From a virus, in IMG/VR virus record IMGVR_UViG_3300045988_000419, positions 1 through 5,621 of that record: DNA of 5,621 bases; one strand, written 5' to 3'. The translations under genes and the position numbers were made by a program. Each line of letters begins with the position of its first letter. The first letter of the stretch is position 1. This document shows, one piece after another, positions 1-5,621 of this stretch. Under the pieces are notes generated by a model. The model was given only the letters and a program-made list of their open reading frames with translations. It did not search any database and had not been told where the DNA came from.

Positions 1-141
1 GATGATAATGCGGCCTTCCTGTTTGCTCTCCGTACTCTCCTGCGCAGAAATAGCGTAAGCCCGGCTCTGAGGCCCTTCTAAGGCGTTTTATGAACTTCTG
101 CACATCCTCATACCATAGCGTTTGATTTGTCTTTAAATCGC
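1..141. repeat. Terminal redundancy copy 1 (identical to 5481-5621); marks circular genome closure
   Basis: Base-by-base reading shows gatgataatgcggccttcctg...ctttaaatcgc at both ends. Confidence 0.97.
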
Positions 142-490
142 CCTTTCTGCCGCTGTATACGCCACCTCTGAAAACTTCACCGGTTTCGTGGTTGATGCAT
201 GGCACATGAGTGTCATCATAAGTTAGCGTAAGAAAATATACACTATTTGGTATAGATGTTTTTGCTTCCATTTCAATTCTTGCCGCCCAGTCTTGCCGTT
301 TCCGGATTCTACATCCGATGCATTGCCCGCACGGTACTAGCATAACGTCTTTTCGATAGATAAGGTCTTCGTATGTCAAGTTCGGATTATGTGCTCTTTC
401 AAGCGCAAAGCGCCTGAGCGTGTATACATGCCCAGACGCTTCACGGTCTTCTGGCACATAAAACCGGATTAACGGTTTATAACATGCCAT
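1..490 (-). CDS. VP4: Replication initiation protein VP4 (HUH rolling-circle endonuclease), N-terminal part. The ORF runs off the window start and continues at 5480 because the genome is circular. The full gene is 490..1 joined to 5480..4954, 338 aa.
   Basis: Manual translation from ATG 490..488 gives MACYKPLIRFYVPEDREASGHVYTLRRFALERAHNPNLTYEDLIYRKDVMLVPCGQCIGCRIRKRQDWAARIEMEAKTSIPNSVYFLTLTYDDTHVPC... with no stop down to base 1. It is in frame with the 4954..5583 ORF (490-103=387, divisible by 3). It carries a CGQCIGC Cys cluster, RCR motif I FLTLTY (about 218-235) and an HYH motif at 2-10. An AGGAG SD lies at 503..499, 8 nt upstream of the ATG. Confidence 0.93.
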   Translation of the reverse strand, partial: MACYKPLIRFYVPEDREASGHVYTLRRFALERAHNPNLTYEDLIYRKDVMLVPCGQCIGCRIRKRQDWAARIEMEAKTSIPNSVYFLTLTYDDTHVPCINHETGEVFRGGVYSGRKGDLKTNQTLWYEDVQKFIKRLRRASEPGLRYFCAGEYGEQTGRPHYH

Positions 491-493
491 TGC

Positions 494-1351
494 TTATTCT
501 CCTGTATCTCCGTTCAGATCCTGTCGTCTTTTCGCCTTTTCCTGAAGAGTTTTGCTTACTTTGCCTGCGCTGGTTTTCGCCACATCGGTGACTTTGTCTT
601 CGATGTTTTTTTCGGCCTCTGCTTTCTGTTCCTGGTCTTCTTCGGTTTTGTTGATAATCGTTCCCACGTCTTTGGCCAGTTGCTGAAAGCTGTACCCGCT
701 GTTAAATCCTTGCTGGTAATAGTCACTGACTGCGCTTGCAATGTTGTGGCTCGCATTTGCGCTGAGCTGGAAATTGCTACTTAGTGCACTTCCTCCTAGT
801 GCGCTTGTGCTTCCCAGTCCCATACTTGCCGCTCCGATTGTGCCCGCACCGCCTCCCGGTGTGCTTGCGCCTCCGTTCATTGCCGCCAAGATTGGGTTGA
901 TTCCTGCGGCCCTCATGTCTTTCACGGCTCTTTGGTAGGCTGTACTGCTCATGTGCTCTTGCCAATCGCGGTTTGCTTGAGCTTCTGCGGAGTTGTAGGC
1001 CATTGCCTCCTGCATCATTTTGCGGTTAAATTTGCCTTGATAATTCATCATGTTTCGGTTTAGCATGTATTGCAGTCCGCTTGAACCCAAGTTTCCGAGT
1101 CTCTGTAAAACCATGCTTCCGAGGTTTACGACGTCGTTACTTCCTCCGATGCTTCCGCCGATTCCCCAGCCTTCGCTTCCGCTTTCGCTGTGCCCTCCGC
1201 CCTGCGTGTATCCATTGTTGCCGCTTGTCGTTAAGGTTGTGTTGCCGCTTGTGTCATAGTATAGCTGCTCGTTTTGTTTTCGGTTTTGCCAAGAGTTCCA
1301 CAGATTGACACCTGCGTTTATGAGGCTTGGCACTACGCTCCAAAAACCCAT
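494..1351 (-). CDS. VP2: Minor capsid / DNA pilot protein VP2 (285 aa)
   Basis: It sits directly downstream of VP1, the typical gokushovirus position. It has a Gly/Ser-rich low-complexity core, an N-terminus MGFWSVVPSLINAG, and a conserved-looking STAYQRAVKDMRAAGINPILA segment typical of gokushovirus VP2. Its TAA stop (494-496) is 3 nt before the VP4 ATG. Confidence 0.88.
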   Translation of the reverse strand: MGFWSVVPSLINAGVNLWNSWQNRKQNEQLYYDTSGNTTLTTSGNNGYTQGGGHSESGSEGWGIGGSIGGSNDVVNLGSMVLQRLGNLGSSGLQYMLNRNMMNYQGKFNRKMMQEAMAYNSAEAQANRDWQEHMSSTAYQRAVKDMRAAGINPILAAMNGGASTPGGGAGTIGAASMGLGSTSALGGSALSSNFQLSANASHNIASAVSDYYQQGFNSGYSFQQLAKDVGTIINKTEEDQEQKAEAEKNIEDKVTDVAKTSAGKVSKTLQEKAKRRQDLNGDTGE

Positions 1352-1359
1352 AATACAAT

Positions 1360-1382
1360 AGCCCGAGGTATTCCCCCGGGCT
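1360..1382 (-). promoter_or_regulatory. Intercistronic hairpin between VP1 and VP2 (candidate attenuator or split ribosome-binding site)
   Basis: The minus strand reads AGAAAGGGGGA-AGCCCGGGG-GAATA-CCUCGGGCU-AUUGUAUU-AUG. This is a 9-bp stem (one G-U) that sits between the only SD-like element (AAGGGGGA, 1390..1383) and the VP2 ATG (1351). It is followed by moderately U-rich sequence. Confidence 0.5.
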
Positions 1383-1393
1383 TCCCCCTTTCT

Positions 1394-3046
1394 TTAGTGA
1401 TGATCTACCAGACCCGGGACGCTATAGAGCGGCATCGGCCGGACAGTTGTGTTTTTCACGAGGATGTCCATGATGAACTGTGGTTCGTCCTGAATTGCGA
1501 GAGTACGTTGAATTTCAGCTTTGCCCTCTTTCATCCACTCCTGAGAGAGCACAGGCACTGAGCTGTATTCGTCGGCATAGTGCCAAGAGTCCAGTGTGCC
1601 GTTTGCGTTGCTTCTGAAGAGGCCACAGACGCGGTTCGGTTTCATCCTGTATTCGCTCCATGCTTCCTGATAGCCGAAGGCCTCTTCGTCGGATGCTTCC
1701 GCTGTTGCGTAAAGCTCCTTTTTCAGTACTGCCTGCTCGCCCAAGTTTGCGAATACCGGGAAGTAGAAATCCAGCTTGTTTTTCCGACTCCACATCCGCT
1801 CGATGCCCTGTTGATATGTGTGGTCGTGTCGCACGCAGCACACACCGATGACCCAGCCGTGTTCTTCGAAGGACTTCGTAAAAGAACTTTTGCCAAATCC
1901 GGTTACGGACACTGCCGCTACGTTGCCCTGCGGGCTTTCCGTGGTCGTGCCGCTCGTCTGCACAACTTGGTTAATGTTGATCATGACCCGGTCGCCGCCC
2001 AGATACTCCGGAATCTGTGCTGTTTTATCGCTGATGCGCGTCCGGAATAGACTGTAAATTTGCTCACGATACCGAGAGCCGCCCCGTGCCAGCTCTTCGA
2101 AGTACTTTTGCACCTGAAAAGCTTTTCTCAGTTCGTTGATGCTTGTTGCGTTGACTTTCGAAAGGTCCGCGCCTAGGTAGGCTTGTTTATCACCCGTGGC
2201 GAAGATCGCTCTATTGTCGGGCATGCCGAGTATGCCCGCTGTGCCGGTCCGTTCGATTGTTCCGTTGTATATTGCGTAAAGCGATGAGTCCCATTCGGTT
2301 TTTACGTTGGCGTTTTTGTAACCTTTAATGGGCGCGTTACCGCTCAATGGAATTCTAACCGGGTCTCCCGCTCTCTGAGGCGAAGGGAGACTGCTGGAGA
2401 AGTAGTCGTGAAAGCGGTTGACAGGAAGAGGACGACCGCCCGTATATGCTTGCTGGAGAATCTTTTCGATGTTGTCCCCTGCGTCGTCCTTGTAGTCCAC
2501 AGTTGCGTCTGTCACACTGTTGATTGCCGGATTGTCCACGTTCTGGTCTCTGAACCACTCATTCCAGATTTTCACATACGCACGAATTGGCAGTGCGTTG
2601 ATTTCTGTTTTCTTCCCTGCGCCGACAAATTTGGTCGGAATGCCCATATAGTCGAGGATGCTGGCTTCTTTCGGCAGTTTGTCGGTGTCGCTTGTACCCG
2701 TGATTTTGATAGTCGGAACAGTGTACTCGACTGCCTGCACCCACGGCTCATCGGTGACTTCGCCCATGAATTCCTTCCAATGCTCCCACAGAATACGGTT
2801 CGGAACAAAGAAATAATAGTAATCCAAGTATGCGTTGTCCATTACCGGAAAAATCGGTGTGGTCATACGAATAATTGCACTCTGGTCTACAGAGAAGGTA
2901 TCGCCGGGCAAGACTTCATCCACATAAAAAGGAATGAGCTTGCCAGCGTCGAATGTTAACTTAATATCTTGGTCGCGCTTGAAACGGCTTCGCGTGATTT
3001 CCAGTGCTGGCACTTGGTTAAAGTGCGCCTCATTGTTGCGTTTCAT
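1394..3046 (-). CDS. VP1: Major capsid protein VP1 (phiX174 F-like jelly-roll, 550 aa)
   Basis: It carries hallmark gokushovirus VP1 motifs: HFNQVPALEITRSRF, GKLIPFYVDEVLPGDTF, PVMDNAYLDYYYFFVPNRILWEHWKEFMGE, INELRKAFQVQKYFEELARGGSRY and IPEYLGG. A GGAGG SD lies 7 nt upstream of the ATG (3046..3044). Confidence 0.97.
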   Translation of the reverse strand: MKRNNEAHFNQVPALEITRSRFKRDQDIKLTFDAGKLIPFYVDEVLPGDTFSVDQSAIIRMTTPIFPVMDNAYLDYYYFFVPNRILWEHWKEFMGEVTDEPWVQAVEYTVPTIKITGTSDTDKLPKEASILDYMGIPTKFVGAGKKTEINALPIRAYVKIWNEWFRDQNVDNPAINSVTDATVDYKDDAGDNIEKILQQAYTGGRPLPVNRFHDYFSSSLPSPQRAGDPVRIPLSGNAPIKGYKNANVKTEWDSSLYAIYNGTIERTGTAGILGMPDNRAIFATGDKQAYLGADLSKVNATSINELRKAFQVQKYFEELARGGSRYREQIYSLFRTRISDKTAQIPEYLGGDRVMININQVVQTSGTTTESPQGNVAAVSVTGFGKSSFTKSFEEHGWVIGVCCVRHDHTYQQGIERMWSRKNKLDFYFPVFANLGEQAVLKKELYATAEASDEEAFGYQEAWSEYRMKPNRVCGLFRSNANGTLDSWHYADEYSSVPVLSQEWMKEGKAEIQRTLAIQDEPQFIMDILVKNTTVRPMPLYSVPGLVDHH

Positions 3047-3534
3047 TACTCACCCTCCTTTTTGGCGTTATTTTCAGGTGGCTTTTCAAGTGGATTTTCC
3101 TTTAAAATGTCCAATTTCTTGGCCCATTCCACTGTGCCGTAGTCGTGGATGAATTTATCCACGTCGTTGTCGAACTTCTGCTTGGTTTCGCTCGGGAGCT
3201 TATCCCAAGTTTGCTCGGCCTGGATCATGAGATTCTGAGCTTCTGCCAGCGTTGTTGGCATTTCCGTATAGTCTACCGGTTCGCCGTCTCCCAGACTTGC
3301 GCCCAGTTTCTGTGCCGCTTCCGGATCAAAAGTGGCTCTCCTGATGATGTTTTCGATTTTAGTCTCTTCAAGGAAACTTTGGATTTCTGCATCCCTGTCG
3401 ATTTCCTCATCGAGAGCCAGTTCCTTTTTGCCTTCGCTGTTGTACTTCCACCGAAAAGTGCGCCGGATTTTATCACCCGACGCACTTGCCTCTTTCGGCA
3501 CTGCACTTGCGGTCGTGAGTCCGAATATCTTCAT
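3046..3534 (-). CDS. VP3: Internal scaffolding protein VP3 (162 aa)
   Basis: It is acidic and helical, immediately upstream of VP1, with a VDYTEMPTTLAEAQNLMIQAEQTWDKLPSETKQKFDNDVDKFI block resembling the Chlamydia-phage-type scaffold family. A GGAG SD lies 7 nt upstream. Its stop overlaps the VP1 start (TAATG at 3048..3044). Confidence 0.87.
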   Translation of the reverse strand: MKIFGLTTASAVPKEASASGDKIRRTFRWKYNSEGKKELALDEEIDRDAEIQSFLEETKIENIIRRATFDPEAAQKLGASLGDGEPVDYTEMPTTLAEAQNLMIQAEQTWDKLPSETKQKFDNDVDKFIHDYGTVEWAKKLDILKENPLEKPPENNAKKEGE

Positions 3535-3782
3535 TACTTGTCTCCTTCGCTGGCGTTGTTCGGCTTACCGTTACAGACTTTCCTCTGGGTGTTGGTGAAA
3601 GTGCCCTTGTCTTCGTCGAACTGGCCGATCTTGTAAAGTGCATAGTCTTCCGGTTCCTGTGCCATCTGACCCGTTTTGCAGGCCGCACAGAACGCTCGCG
3701 TTGCCGTTCCGTCGTTGATCGATTCGAACATCCCCATGAATTTCTGTGCCACATAGTCATATACGCTGTACATGTTCATCAT
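3534..3782 (-). CDS. Small conserved gokushovirus non-structural protein (VP5-like, 82 aa); function uncertain
   Basis: The pattern MYSVYDYVAQKF..F.S.NDGTATRAF.....PEDYALYKIGQFDEDKGTF matches, from memory, a small protein family found just upstream of VP3 in many gokushoviruses. An AAAGGAGAA SD lies 7 nt upstream. Its stop overlaps the VP3 start (TAATG at 3536..3532). Confidence 0.8.
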   Translation of the reverse strand: MMNMYSVYDYVAQKFMGMFESINDGTATRAFCAACKTGQMAQEPEDYALYKIGQFDEDKGTFTNTQRKVCNGKPNNASEGDK

Positions 3783-3847
3783 TTCTTTTCTCCTTTCATG
3801 ATTGCGAAATAGGCCACTGCAGTGACGGCCCAGACGAGACTGATCAT
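3779..3847 (-). CDS. Hypothetical 22-aa hydrophobic mini-protein MISLVWAVTAVAYFAIMKGEKK (speculative)
   Basis: Hand-translated; it is below the ORF-track length cutoff. It nearly fills the only gap (3783-3855) between two genes. It has about 16 hydrophobic residues followed by a KGEKK tail. Its TGA stop overlaps the next ATG (ATGA at 3782..3779), and its ATG lies 8 nt after the upstream stop codon. It has no SD of its own. Confidence 0.3.
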   Translation of the reverse strand: MISLVWAVTAVAYFAIMKGEKK

Positions 3848-3855
3848 AAATTCAT

Positions 3856-4038
3856 TCAGAGTCTGATTCCTCCTCTCATAGGCTTTGCTGTGAGGTTGAT
3901 ACTCTTCGTTTGGTTGGCCGTCTTGTTGTAGATTTTGGCATCCTTACGACGGCGGACTTTGTTTCTCTTGCTCAACTTCTTCACACCTCCATTCTTCAGA
4001 TCCTCTTCCAATTTCTCTTCGGATTTGCTCCATTTCAA
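3856..4038 (-). CDS. Small highly basic DNA-binding/packaging protein (phiX174 J-like / gokushovirus ORF8-like). The coordinates give the maximal ORF, and the true start is probably internal.
   Basis: The C-terminal part, KKLSKRNKVRRRKDAKIYNKTANQTKSINLTAKPMRGGIRL, is very Lys/Arg-rich. From memory, the PMRGGIRL ending recurs in small basic microvirus proteins. The track start at 4038 is a TTG. Alternative starts are GTG 3984..3982 and TTG 3975..3973, both downstream of a GGAGG at 3990..3986. There is no in-frame ATG before the C-terminal Met. It overlaps the 88-aa ORF in another frame. Confidence 0.62.
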   Translation of the reverse strand: MKWSKSEEKLEEDLKNGGVKKLSKRNKVRRRKDAKIYNKTANQTKSINLTAKPMRGGIRL

Positions 4039-4210
4039 TACTATTCGCGAAAGCCTTCTTTTGAAATGCCATGTCGATGTAAAACTTTGCGTCTTCGATT
4101 GTGGCCGCTTGCTGGCTCAGTTTGTAGGCGTTTTTGATTTCCTTGTAAGTCCTTGCAAGTGTCGTCCTTAGAGTCTCGTCGGACTGGTCTTGTACGCTCC
4201 AGCATTTCAT
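3944..4210 (-). CDS. Hypothetical protein, 88 aa, predicted helical; no recognisable family
   Basis: It has an ATG start at 4210..4208, preceded by a strong GAGGAGG SD (4223..4217) with a 6-nt spacer. It is on the same strand and in operon context with the other genes, and its charged, helical composition is plausible for a real protein. Confidence 0.68.
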   Translation of the reverse strand: MKCWSVQDQSDETLRTTLARTYKEIKNAYKLSQQAATIEDAKFYIDMAFQKKAFANSIEMEQIRREIGRGSEEWRCEEVEQEKQSPPS

Positions 4211-4221
4211 GTGATGCCTCC

Positions 4222-4347
4222 TCAGCTCATGTTGTTGGCGTTCTCGTTCTTATCTTCCAGCATGTGATAAATTTTATCAAGGACTGCGAGGATTTCGCGC
4301 AGTTTGCTAAAGATAGCGTTGACTTCTTTAAAGGTCGTTGTTATCAT
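4222..4347 (-). CDS. Hypothetical 41-aa protein MITTTFKEVNAIFSKLREILAVLDKIYHMLEDKNENANNMS (speculative first cistron)
   Basis: Hand-translated. The ATG at 4347..4345 is preceded by GAGGGGG, and the predicted transcription start is only about 8 nt upstream. The TGA stop (4224..4222) overlaps the SD of the next gene. The sequence looks like an amphipathic helix. Confidence 0.38.
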   Translation of the reverse strand: MITTTFKEVNAIFSKLREILAVLDKIYHMLEDKNENANNMS

Positions 4348-4361
4348 CCCCCTCGTAACCC

Positions 4362-4390
4362 ATTATACTACTGCCGCCGTTTTTTTTCAA
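4362..4390 (-). promoter_or_regulatory. Sigma70/SigA-type promoter for the whole minus-strand operon
   Basis: The minus strand reads TTGAAA (4390..4385), then a 17-nt spacer AAAAACGGCGGCAGTAG, then TATAAT (4367..4362). This places the start about 7 nt downstream (near 4355), just ahead of the first SD and ATG. Confidence 0.6.
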
Positions 4391-4440
4391 CCGCGCAGAA
4401 TAGCCAAGGTTGCGCAAGCAATTTTGGGCGTTCTGCGCGG
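4391..4440. promoter_or_regulatory. 10-bp perfect inverted repeat abutting the -35 box (candidate operator or cruciform)
   Basis: ccgcgcagaa (4391-4400) and ttctgcgcgg (4431-4440) are exact reverse complements separated by 30 nt. The spacer contains the palindrome ttgcgcaa (4410-4417) and a ccaa/ttgg pairing. Confidence 0.7.
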
Positions 4441-4468
4441 TTTGCCCGCTGCAGGCGAAACTTTGAGT

Positions 4469-4495
4469 TTTCAACACTTTCAACACTTTCAACAG
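4469..4495. repeat. Tandem 9-bp iterons: TTTCAACAC, TTTCAACAC, TTTCAACAG
   Basis: Three head-to-tail units occupy 4469-4477, 4478-4486 and 4487-4495. Confidence 0.9.
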
Positions 4496-4510
4496 GTTTT
4501 CCACAAAATG

Positions 4511-4532
4511 TTGCACAAAGGATTTTGTGCAA
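4511..4532. other. 9-bp hairpin between the two iteron clusters
   Basis: ttgcacaaa (4511-4519) pairs with tttgtgcaa (4524-4532), with a 4-nt loop ggat. A mutually exclusive 8-bp pairing is possible between cacaaaat (4502-4509) and attttgtg (4522-4529). Confidence 0.75.
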
Positions 4533-4543
4533 ATTGCTATATT

Positions 4544-4581
4544 CTCAACAATTCAACAATCTTTCAACAAAGTTTTCAACC
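4544..4581. repeat. Second cluster of the same motif: CTCAACA, TTCAACA, TTCAACA, TTCAACC at 8-12 bp spacing
   Basis: Copies lie at 4544-4550, 4552-4558, 4563-4569 and 4575-4581, all in the same orientation as the 4469-4495 array. Further copies lie at 4629-4635 and at the -35 box (4386-4392). Confidence 0.85.
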
Positions 4582-4694
4582 TTCTTTTGTGCGCTTTTTT
4601 TACGATGATATGTAAGAAAATGGCACTATTCAACATTTCCACACTCTCTACTACTACGGCTACAACAAATAAAATATAATAATAACTGCGAATT

Positions 4695-4753
4695 CGTATA
4701 CGCACGCGCGTGCGCGCGCGCGTTTCGCGTGCGTGCATGTGTGTGTGTATGCG
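4695..4753. repeat. Two perfect 28-nt alternating pyrimidine-purine tracts (CG/CA/TG/TA dinucleotides) separated by TTT; Z-DNA-prone low complexity
   Basis: 4695-4722 is cgtatacgcacgcgcgtgcgcgcgcgcg and 4726-4753 is cgcgtgcgtgcatgtgtgtgtgtatgcg. Every position alternates Y-R. The region contains a 14-bp perfect palindrome, cgcacgcgcgtgcg (4701-4714), and a 9-bp stem between 4700-4708 and 4726-4734. Confidence 0.9.
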
Positions 4754-4783
4754 AATACCTATGTGTGAGCAAAGCGAACGCAC

Positions 4784-4802
4784 CAACGCCGTATAGGCGT
4801 TG
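4784..4802. other. Small 7-bp hairpin
   Basis: caacgcc (4784-4790) pairs with ggcgttg (4796-4802), with loop gtata. Confidence 0.6.
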
Positions 4803-4814
4803 TGGTATGGAGGT

Positions 4815-4847
4815 TCGGGGGGTAGCGGCAGAACGCTCACCCCCCGA
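4815..4847. other. GC-rich hairpin (G-run / C-run stem)
   Basis: tcggggggt (4815-4823) pairs with accccccga (4839-4847). After a 1-nt bulge (c4838), agcg (4824-4827) pairs with cgct (4834-4837). The loop is gcagaa. There is no flanking U-tract on either strand. Confidence 0.75.
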
Positions 4848-4865
4848 TAATATTCTTGGTAATAG

Positions 4866-4894
4866 AAAACCCCATGTTTCTAACATGGAGTTTT
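4866..4894 (-). terminator. Rho-independent (bidirectional-looking) terminator ending the operon
   Basis: The minus-strand RNA reads AAAACUCCAUGUU-AGA-AACAUGGGGUUUU followed by CUAUU. This gives a 13-bp stem (one G-U) with a 3-nt loop and a U-tract. It lies about 60 nt downstream of the VP4 stop. Confidence 0.6.
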
Positions 4895-4904
4895 GTTGTA
4901 AATC

Positions 4905-4952
4905 TGTCAACGGGCCAAGTTGCAGCCTTGTTAGTAACTTGGCCCGTTGACA
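4905..4952 (-). other. 17-bp perfect hairpin starting 2 nt after the VP4 stop (candidate terminator, origin or priming structure)
   Basis: 4905-4921 (tgtcaacgggccaagtt) is the exact reverse complement of 4936-4952, with a 14-nt loop gcagccttgttagt. The mRNA-sense strand carries CAACTTG (4922..4916) at the loop-stem junction. Confidence 0.7.
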
Positions 4953-4953
4953 C

Positions 4954-5621
4954 TTAAATTTTTCCGGATGCTTTCCGGTGCTTCTTGATTCGGTCTTCTT
5001 GTCCCTTTAGATACTCTTCAATACTAACGTTAGTACGTCCATATTTATCCTTACAGGCGTCTATTGCTTTAGCTTGTCGCGCCTCTTTTAAGGCCCAAAC
5101 TCTGCGTATGTCCTTTTCTTCCATCTGCTTTTCAAAATACCGTGGTATTTGTGCTCTCCGGCCCCCCGAGAGTTGCACATAGCCTTGCGTCCAGATTTCT
5201 TCTTCGTGTTCAAGATAGTATTGCTGACCTATACCCGGGTGTAAGCTCATCCTGCAAAATGGTGGTTGTAAGCCGTTGCGGATGTGAGCTTGTGTTTCCT
5301 CGTCCACCTTTTTTGTGACGTATCCTGCCACATAGCTGAAGGTTGTAAAGTCGTTTGTACAGGCTAAATTGTGTATCCCATATGTCCATAGTTTTGTGAT
5401 ACGCTCGTCTGTGTAGTATCCTTCTTTGCTGAGAAGTCGGTACGGCTTGAGTTTCTCCGGAAAATAGTTAAAAAGTATAAGATGATAATGCGGCCTTCCT
5501 GTTTGCTCTCCGTACTCTCCTGCGCAGAAATAGCGTAAGCCCGGCTCTGAGGCCCTTCTAAGGCGTTTTATGAACTTCTGCACATCCTCATACCATAGCG
5601 TTTGATTTGTCTTTAAATCGC
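4954..5621 (-). CDS. VP4: Replication initiation protein VP4, C-terminal part. The same gene as 1..490, and 5481-5621 duplicates 1-141.
   Basis: The ORF-track entry 4954..5583 begins at an internal GTG, which is an artefact of linearisation. It contains HUH motif II (RPHYHLILFN) and motif III YVAGYVTKK (5308-5334), with two Tyr spaced Y-x-x-x-Y as in the phiX174 gene A protein. The stop is TAA at 4954-4956. Confidence 0.93.
   Translation of the reverse strand, partial: DLKTNQTLWYEDVQKFIKRLRRASEPGLRYFCAGEYGEQTGRPHYHLILFNYFPEKLKPYRLLSKEGYYTDERITKLWTYGIHNLACTNDFTTFSYVAGYVTKKVDEETQAHIRNGLQPPFCRMSLHPGIGQQYYLEHEEEIWTQGYVQLSGGRRAQIPRYFEKQMEEKDIRRVWALKEARQAKAIDACKDKYGRTNVSIEEYLKGQEDRIKKHRKASGKI
5481..5621. 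repeat. Terminal redundancy copy 2 (identical to 1-141)
   Basis: Same as copy 1. The unit length is 5,480 nt. Confidence 0.97.

Follow-up and report, generated by a model that had tools for sequence, protein, structure and literature searches.

A conserved single-strand hairpin of alternating CG and TG steps next to a candidate replication origin in gut gokushoviruses

This study focused on two alternating pyrimidine-purine (Y-R) tracts, at positions 4695-4722 and 4726-4753, in a 5,621-nucleotide (nt) stretch of viral DNA (IMG/VR record IMGVR_UViG_3300045988_000419, positions 1 to 5,621; hereafter the window). The window is a gokushovirus genome whose recognisable genes are all on the minus strand. 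Together, the two tracts make up the arms of a single hairpin, a relationship overlooked in the initial annotation of this DNA. The hairpin pairs fully on the plus strand only, is conserved among related viruses, sits in non-coding DNA close to a probable origin of replication (as had been suspected of the tracts), and changes orientation relative to the genes together with an origin-like motif and a composition skew. With slightly better than an even chance, it represents an origin-proximal replication signal that acts at the single-stranded DNA (ssDNA) stage, on a plus strand that would be nicked, displaced and packaged. What was observed directly is the hairpin structure, how it is conserved, its restriction to one strand, where it lies and its joint inversion with the motif and the skew; from these we infer both the identity of the packaged strand and a role in priming or termination.

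The perfect alternation described in the initial annotation was exact. In a script check, the first tract (CGTATACGCACGCGCGTGCGCGCGCGCG) and the second (CGCGTGCGTGCATGTGTGTGTGTATGCG) each alternated at 28 of 28 positions, and the first run strictly reaches position 4723, giving runs of 29 and 28 nt. Runs of this length are not random. Across 2000 mononucleotide shuffles and 1000 first-order Markov simulations of the window, the longest alternating run had a mean of 12.6-12.7 nt and was never above 22 nt; in the real sequence, the runs ranking after the two tracts measure only 14 and 12 nt. Two smaller self-complementary features that had been reported, a 14-nt palindrome at 4701-4714 (CGCACGCGCGTGCG) and a 9-bp stem between 4700-4708 and 4726-4734, are both present, and the strong folding predicted for the tracts as ssDNA proved to involve their entire length. 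On the plus strand, the 5' arm (4695-4722), a (YR)14 sequence consisting mainly of CG, TG and CA steps, pairs end to end with the 3' arm (4726-4753), also (YR)14, forming 28 uninterrupted pairs around a TTT loop (4723-4725), with a folding energy of -25.4 kcal/mol and a z-score of -3.2 relative to dinucleotide shuffles. Twenty of the 28 pairs are Watson-Crick and the other eight are G·T, three of these lying within the outer 12 pairs. The minus (gene-sense) strand gave a broken fold of -16.0 kcal/mol, no improvement on shuffled sequences (z = +0.18). The pyrimidine positions of the plus-strand arms are C or T and the purine positions almost exclusively G, so that every position without Watson-Crick pairing is G·T on the plus strand but A·C on its complement. 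The earlier statement that the tracts would fold in the packaged DNA thus stands as to folding, but as to packaging it applies only if the packaged strand is the plus strand, antisense to the genes.

The element was recovered from 92 of 212 distinct related genomes, as 69 sequence variants. Three GenBank genomes, from France and China, have syntenic alternating CG/CA arms split by AAA, AAG or AAT, situated between the VP4 stop codon and a conserved non-coding block. Most of the 69 IMG/VR genomes retrieved with an exact 26-mer from that block carry the paired tracts at a fixed distance, and retrieval by capsid sequence added further genomes that have the element though not the exact 26-mer. A metagenome scan for near-identical relatives of the window returned a single diverged match, L227, without the element. 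The plan is the same throughout, (YG)n, an A/T loop and (YG)n, which is essentially a (CG)n stem in which many C residues have become T and G-C pairs have become G·T. The length polymorphism anticipated for such a sequence was evident among relatives, with arms of 12-34 nt and stems of 9-32 bp (32 and 34 nt in the closest relatives of the window), and the lengths of the two arms co-vary (r = 0.77, mean difference 2.2 nt). The centre is always an A/T-rich loop of 3-4 nt (ATTA, TTT, CTAT or CTT). As regards a contingency locus, which had also been suggested, arm length is variable and no gene or promoter is tied to the element. One genome, L033, carries two copies about 155 nt apart, and in another (L086:1125-1178) the arms are direct repeats of identical sequence and can nevertheless pair by way of G·T, which shows that (YG)n arms can be direct and inverted repeats simultaneously.

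Base pairing across the relatives was strongly dependent on the strand. On the foldable strand, the 69 variants contain 1284 pairs (872 G-C, 117 A-T and 295 G·T) and only six internal unpaired nucleotides. An A is always opposite a T, while G·T is freely tolerated, and in the first set of sequences essentially no A·C mismatches were seen where 53 would be expected if partners were independent. A formal count covered the inner 12 bp of 38 variants and used 500 shuffles; 99.8% of cells paired on the foldable strand, compared with 72.6% on the opposite strand, six pairs showed double-sided changes, and none of the 500 shuffles scored as high. Certain wobble positions are conserved as such; one pair, for instance, is U·G in 30 of the 38 variants. 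CA steps outnumber TG steps by 251 to 59, and the stem positions alternate Y-R in all 69 variants. Since any (YG)n sequence can pair with any other by way of G·T, the non-trivial signal lies in the A-T pairs, of which there are 117, and in the loop and the matching of the arms. Together with the co-inversion described below, the pairing on one strand, the loop and the matched arms argue for selection on an intrastrand DNA hairpin, and not on Z-DNA as such.

Beyond the 3' arm lies a second, origin-like hairpin (plus strand, 4905-4953), with a perfect 17-bp stem (4905-4921/4936-4952; z = -10.3). It is abutted by the stop codon (4954-4956) of VP4, the Rep gene, which crosses the circular junction of the genome. 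The loop on the plus strand is GCAGCCTTGTTAGT, with CTTG at 4927-4930, and GACAC follows at 4949-4953. The window's version of the wider loop motif, TACTTGAT, is CCTTGTTAG. In relatives the plus-strand loop is TACTTGATAG, then (TAG)GTGACACC. Gokushoviruses whose coding strand is rich in T at synonymous sites (T-rich genomes), and Chp2, have a coding-strand hairpin upstream of VP4 of the form GCACAGT....-TACTTGAT-....ACTGTGC-TAGGTGACACC, located at L075:2900-2945 in Chp2 and found likewise in L152-L164. In the alignment, the same loop and the same CTAGGTGACACC flank occur in both orientations relative to the genes, and the window hairpin is homologous to the one with a TACTTGAT loop and a GTGACAC flank in other gokushoviruses. 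Of 69 T-rich genomes, 41 have the motif TACTTGAT on the coding strand, with one antisense match, and 60 of its 65 occurrences are within a hairpin loop. A composite pattern, CTTG[AT]T...TGACA[CG], was found only in antisense in 108 of 126 genomes of the window's type, rich in A on the coding strand, and only in sense in two; among 67 T-rich genomes it was only in sense in 47 and in antisense in none.

This hairpin resembles the origin of phiX174. The viral strand of phiX174 reads CAACTTG/ATA...GACCAC at its annotated origin, with 17 nt from CTTG to GACCAC, and the corresponding spacing in the window is 18 nt. The gene A site of phiX174, CAACTTG/ATATTAATAACACTATAGACCAC, accordingly shares CTTG, a spacing of 17-18 nt and GAC(C)AC with the 4905-4953 hairpin, and not with the CG/TG tract, while the hairpin of relatives shares ACTTGATA exactly with the phiX174 origin. 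A plain 7-8-mer match to that origin is weak alone, and it is the location of the motif within a hairpin loop, seen for 60 of 65 occurrences, together with the shared 3' flank, that makes the likeness convincing. The gokushovirus motif differs from that of phiX174 in lying in a hairpin loop outside the Rep gene and, in the window's clade, on the strand opposite to the genes. Judged from sequence, hairpin 4905-4953 is a putative nick site for Rep (VP4), and a candidate viral-strand origin on the plus strand; a literature search found no description of the TACTTGAT hairpin, of the nick site or of the motif. Its stem varies freely by transversions among aligned relatives, and within the window's clade the origin-like stems have 13 G·T against one A·C on the strand that carries the motif. 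Among the 82 genomes with both features, 98% have the CG/TG hairpin 5' of the CTTG of this motif, as read on the foldable strand, at a median distance of 60 nt (10th-90th percentile, 35-161). In the window the distance is 173 nt, and the variable spacer between the two hairpins (4754-4904) is about 150 nt long, compared with about 20-30 nt in most relatives; the insert of about 150 nt was seen in the window only.

A comparison of clades revealed that strand polarity is reversed as a unit. At four-fold degenerate sites, the coding strand of the window's clade has an A frequency of 0.42 and a T frequency of 0.12, while the T frequency on the coding strand, which is their viral strand, is 0.61 in phiX174, 0.50 in Chp2 and 0.65 in SpV4. 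A known hallmark of ssDNA phages is their preferential use of NNT codons on the viral strand (PMC3278643). In the clade with an A-rich coding strand, the CG/TG hairpin folds on the antisense strand (24 genomes tested; 85 carriers in all). Six genomes with a T-rich coding strand, the VP1 proteins of which are only about 38% identical to that of the window, carry the same element, likewise centred on GTTTC; here it folds on the coding strand, and the antisense-strand fold is broken. The foldable strand is in every case the strand with T-rich synonymous sites, and between clades the element, the origin-like motif and the skew in composition reverse jointly with respect to the genes. Four independent markers, namely the fold of the hairpin, the strand bearing TACTTGAT...GTGACAC, synonymous T richness, and the G·T bias of the origin stem, thus mark the antisense strand as the single-stranded one in the window's clade, and the sense strand in classical gokushoviruses. 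We regard it as an evenly balanced proposition that a large clade of gut gokushoviruses, including the window, has an origin inverted with respect to its genes and packages the antisense strand, and these would be the first 'negative-sense' Microviridae. A search of the literature found no negative-sense, ambisense or antisense-packaging member of the family.

For other, small microviruses, conserved intergenic hairpins have been suggested as the places where complementary-strand synthesis begins (PMC9865509). In the replication scheme envisaged for the window, Rep would nick, displace and package the plus strand, and the hairpin would close whenever that strand is single-stranded, as on entry of the virion DNA and on completion of every rolling-circle round. 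Being just 5' of the nick, it would be the last segment to be displaced in each round. The most likely role is that of an accessory signal, in which the folded DNA would stay free of single-stranded DNA-binding protein and mark a site for complementary-strand priming beside the origin; alternatively, the hairpin might help to present the regenerated origin or to terminate there. The pattern of CG steps turned into TG steps would fit C-to-T change on exposed ssDNA, tolerated since G·T keeps the stem intact. The co-inversion carries particular weight in this scheme, because a signal on the displaced strand must share its strand with the nick site, whereas an element acting in duplex DNA or in transcription need not.

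The closest parallels are the single-strand origins (sso) of rolling-circle plasmids. These origins (ssoA, ssoU) are hairpins of the displaced strand, placed upstream of the nick site and exposed last, and they are not absolutely essential. Like them, and like the complementary-strand origins of ssDNA phages (the primosome assembly site, PAS, of phiX174, oric of G4 and the minus origin of M13), the window hairpin is non-coding, orientation-dependent, strand-specific and conserved across diverged replicons, and its intrastrand pairing is confined to one strand of non-coding DNA. The known plasmid and phage elements are longer and imperfect, of mixed sequence and with defined motifs (RSB and CS-6 in ssoA, the CTG start in G4), whereas the window hairpin is a short stem of pure alternating CG/TG. 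A second group of known elements functions through one folded strand near the cleavage site of an HUH or tyrosine enzyme, including the bottom strand of integron attC sites, attP of CTX phage, the ends of IS200/IS608 and the 3' hairpin of Helitrons. The window hairpin similarly folds on one strand near a putative cleavage site, but it is free of bulges and departs from Watson-Crick pairing by wobble pairs only, whereas the attC-type hairpins use extrahelical bases or defined sequences, and, unlike in that group, its distance from the putative site varies from 35 to 170 nt. By analogy, the element appears most like a single-strand origin or an origin-auxiliary hairpin, though it is not assignable to any known class. 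The initial annotation knew of no described role for such a tract in Microviridae, and a literature search likewise found none.

A number of observations weigh against a replication signal on a packaged plus strand. To our knowledge, all characterised Microviridae package the gene-sense strand, and if this holds here then the strand that forms the hairpin would never be free ssDNA. The element is absent from 41 of the 126 genomes of its own clade and from 60 of the 67 T-rich gokushoviruses, and it was not found in phiX174, Chp2, SpV4 or phiMH2K; in L227 the conserved block directly abuts the origin-like hairpin, and L020 keeps only a remnant of the element. These absences mean that the element is accessory, not essential, and such ready loss would not be expected of a sole complementary-strand origin. 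Arms of this composition will in part pair automatically, once G·T is allowed. Strict alternation is not required by a hairpin, and as the origin-like stem changes by transversions, something else must also shape the tract, whether slippage, Z-form potential or a protein. The skew is an imperfect marker of polarity, since phiMH2K is A-rich (A 0.45, T 0.24), with no clear origin-like motif detected, and L141 and L153 are A-rich yet have the motif on the sense strand. Because of these three genomes, synonymous composition alone does not decide which strand is packaged, and it was used only jointly with the polarity of the motif and of the hairpin. Lastly, the genomes are related to each other, and the flip may represent only two independent lineages.

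The initial annotation had favoured Z-DNA or a cruciform in the replicative form. Uninterrupted alternation over 29 and 28 nt far exceeds the roughly 12 bp regarded as sufficient for a Z-DNA tract, and the perfect alternation over 2 x 28 bp of CG and TG/CA steps is that of classical (CG)n/(TG)n tracts. By rough estimates, each 28-bp arm would flip at a critical superhelical density of about -0.04 (-0.038 to -0.046), and flipping both would relieve a 5.48-kb circle at a sigma of -0.06 of about 37% of its supercoils. The tract also adjoins an A/T-rich stretch and the putative nick site, and all stem positions alternate in 69 of 69 variants, which a hairpin does not need. Z-DNA that absorbs supercoils in the replicative form and so tunes origin opening or transcription is nevertheless an unlikely primary function. 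The potential to form Z-DNA is symmetric between strands, CA being equivalent to TG, and so does not predict the 251:59 asymmetry of these steps, nor does it predict the rule that A faces T, the constant loop, the matched arms or the co-inversion with the origin motif; moreover, a literature search found no report of Z-DNA in Microviridae. As the main explanation it is not supported, in view of the constant loop, the co-varying arms, and the pairing of 99.8% of cells on one strand against 72.6% on the other, constraints which are those of a hairpin and not of a duplex conformation. Z-formation is physically plausible as a secondary property of the duplex form, and a secondary role is possible because strict alternation is not explained by the hairpin alone. 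A cruciform is considerably less probable again, as is an intrinsic terminator of the gene-sense transcript after VP4, even though the inverted repeat is rich in G+C, lies downstream of VP4, and in many relatives is followed in the gene sense by an A/T-rich run. Both strands of a cruciform must pair, but on the non-foldable strand A·C mismatches occupy 23% of the stem, and the window arms are complementary in the Watson-Crick sense at only 20 of 28 positions. As a terminator, the gene-sense hairpin is disrupted (A·C mismatches in 27% of stem cells in the inner 12 bp of the 38 variants), while the plus-strand hairpin is followed by AATACC and not by a U-run. A scan found neither an intrinsic terminator nor a sigma-70 promoter in the tract; the terminator-like hairpin at 4866-4894 is a separate structure.

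Two further explanations are about equally improbable, each a little less favoured than Z-DNA. If the gene-sense strand were packaged and the plus strand transcribed, the hairpin might function as RNA, either within a small antisense RNA, for example a countertranscript against the 3' end of Rep, or within an RNA primer synthesised on the viral strand. G·U wobble is typical of RNA helices and makes up 23% of the pairs here, and the plus strand has a sigma-70-like promoter (10/12 matches, 4319-4347) and a terminator-like hairpin with a T-run (4872-4888). That promoter is in a non-conserved stretch, and no conserved antisense promoter was found; a Bacteroidota-type promoter motif is kept on the sense strand (31-40 of 74 genomes) and hardly at all in antisense. 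The hairpin has no T-run following it, and Rfam gave only sub-threshold microRNA look-alikes. Since the element is on the sense strand in the T-rich clade, an RNA role would have to differ between clades, and the flip of the skew and of the origin-like motif would be left unexplained. Alternatively, the element might be a neutral or selfish by-product, a (CG)n/(TG)n microsatellite that arises by slippage at a recombination-prone site near the origin and decays by C-to-T change. This would account for the wide range of arm lengths, for the frequent absence of the element even from close relatives, for the duplicated copy in L033 and the direct-repeat arms of L086, and for the automatic self-pairing of (YG)n, and the fact that similarity stops at 4681, just before the tract, would fit a recombination junction. 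A plain microsatellite has no need of a central A/T loop, however, certain wobbles are themselves conserved (U·G in 30 of 38 variants at one pair), and the place, the plan of two arms and a loop, the matched arms and the A-T compensation are all kept among genomes with capsids only 38-70% identical. Hardly any probability attaches to an assembly or polymerase artefact, or to an Arg-rich peptide encoded by the tract. Simple repeats of CG/TG can arise as artefacts, and the initial annotation had raised this concern, but it is dispelled by syntenic homologues at the same place in about 90 independent metagenomic assemblies and in the three GenBank records. Minus-strand open reading frames (ORFs) at 4553-4840 and 4626-4910 do read through the tract, but neither these nor the plus-strand ORFs at 4710-4796 and 4729-4950 matched a Pfam or PHROG family, and element lengths differ by non-multiples of three, so protein coding was rejected. 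Also rejected were the Rfam matches of the tract to mir-3149 and mir-297 (42.3 bits against a threshold of 100, and 27 against 90), which are low-complexity (TG)n look-alikes, and a weak greA-leader match at 4267-4371, put down to chance or low complexity.

Gokushoviruses are the dominant ssDNA phages of animal guts, and their replication signals are essentially uncharacterised. What is gained here is a widely conserved candidate for the viral-strand origin, with TACTTGAT in the loop and GTGACAC in the 3' flank, a new kind of strand-specific hairpin built from CG/TG steps only, and a simple, sequence-based way of telling which strand is the single-stranded one. If the antisense strand is indeed packaged, an entire clade of microviruses would contradict what textbooks give as a property of the family, and this would be relevant to strand-specific virome library methods, to analyses of mutation spectra and to the design of synthetic genomes. 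The element also provides a natural test case, in which a strongly Z-prone duplex and a one-strand hairpin coincide beside a supercoil-dependent origin.

The non-coding DNA around the element extends from 4211 to 4953, and the ORFs within it have no Pfam or PHROG family match. On the 5' side is the conserved block (4467-4681), which ends 14 nt before the hairpin. It holds about eight repeats of the TGTTGAAA type in the gene sense (TTTCAACA on the plus strand) and a small hairpin at 4511-4532. The block has about 80% nucleotide identity to ten GenBank microviruses, with a 50-nt stretch identical in four genomes, and its exact 26-mer is common to the 69 IMG/VR genomes, the VP1 and VP4 proteins of which are about 60% and 57% identical to those of the window. 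It is thus 80-100% identical across genomes in which these two proteins are only about 60% identical. The Bacteroidota-type promoter motif counted above has the form TTTG...TAnnTTTG. The block itself might serve as a promoter, as a site for a host factor or as one part of an sso. Megablast gave ten matches to GenBank microviruses, and none of them extends past 4681, so that the hairpin/origin region may be a recombination junction between the shared block and the variable region. In one T-rich genome with the hairpin on the coding strand (L145:3560-3600), TGTTGAT repeats are also on the coding strand; in this single case, the TGTTGA repeats may have stayed gene-oriented while the hairpin/origin module flipped. 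Between the block and the 5' arm is an A/T-rich spacer (4682-4694, the TAATAACTGCGAATT region), which is A/T-rich in relatives too. The variable spacer on the other side contains a small hairpin at about 4786-4800, a G6/C6 stem at 4814-4846, and the terminator-like hairpin at 4866-4894 (CCCCATGTT/AACATGGAG), which is followed by T-runs on both strands and from its sequence looks like a bidirectional terminator.

The genome itself is typical of the Gokushovirinae. An exact direct repeat of 141 nt at the window ends (1-141 = 5481-5621) indicates a circular assembly of about 5480 nt (~5.48 kb), within the circular class of about 4.5-6 kb. The minus strand encodes VP2 (494-1351), the VP1 capsid protein (1394-3046; Phage_F, E = 6.5e-142), the VP3 scaffold protein (3046-3534; Chlamy_scaf), VP5 (3534-3782; Phage_ORF5) and the 3' part of the HUH Rep gene VP4 (4954-5621; REP_ORF2-G2P domain, E = 4.2e-15). 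These matches bear out the assignment to Microviridae made in the initial annotation. An 88-aa ORF (3944-4210, minus strand) has no Pfam or PHROG match but occurs in 61 relatives, at a median identity of 57%, and is probably a real accessory gene. The nearest GenBank genomes are gokushoviruses of human and pig gut, and the best capsid match in IMG/VR is 72% identical. The conserved 26-mer matched one of 32 million bacterial contigs, L077 (CALBJK010000280.1), which is a free phage contig of 5.8 kb; it was binned with an uncultured Prevotella metagenome-assembled genome, giving a weak hint as to the host. A prophage or attachment site, considered with XerCD/dif in mind, was dropped, as no integration junction or prophage copy was found. 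Finally, an alternating run of 15 nt, ACATGTGCGTATGTG, recurs in many relatives (for example, L095:285-299 and L109:3091-3105), at varying positions relative to VP1; its counterpart in the window measures 12 nt (2573-2584), lies within VP1, and is apparently unrelated to the hairpin.

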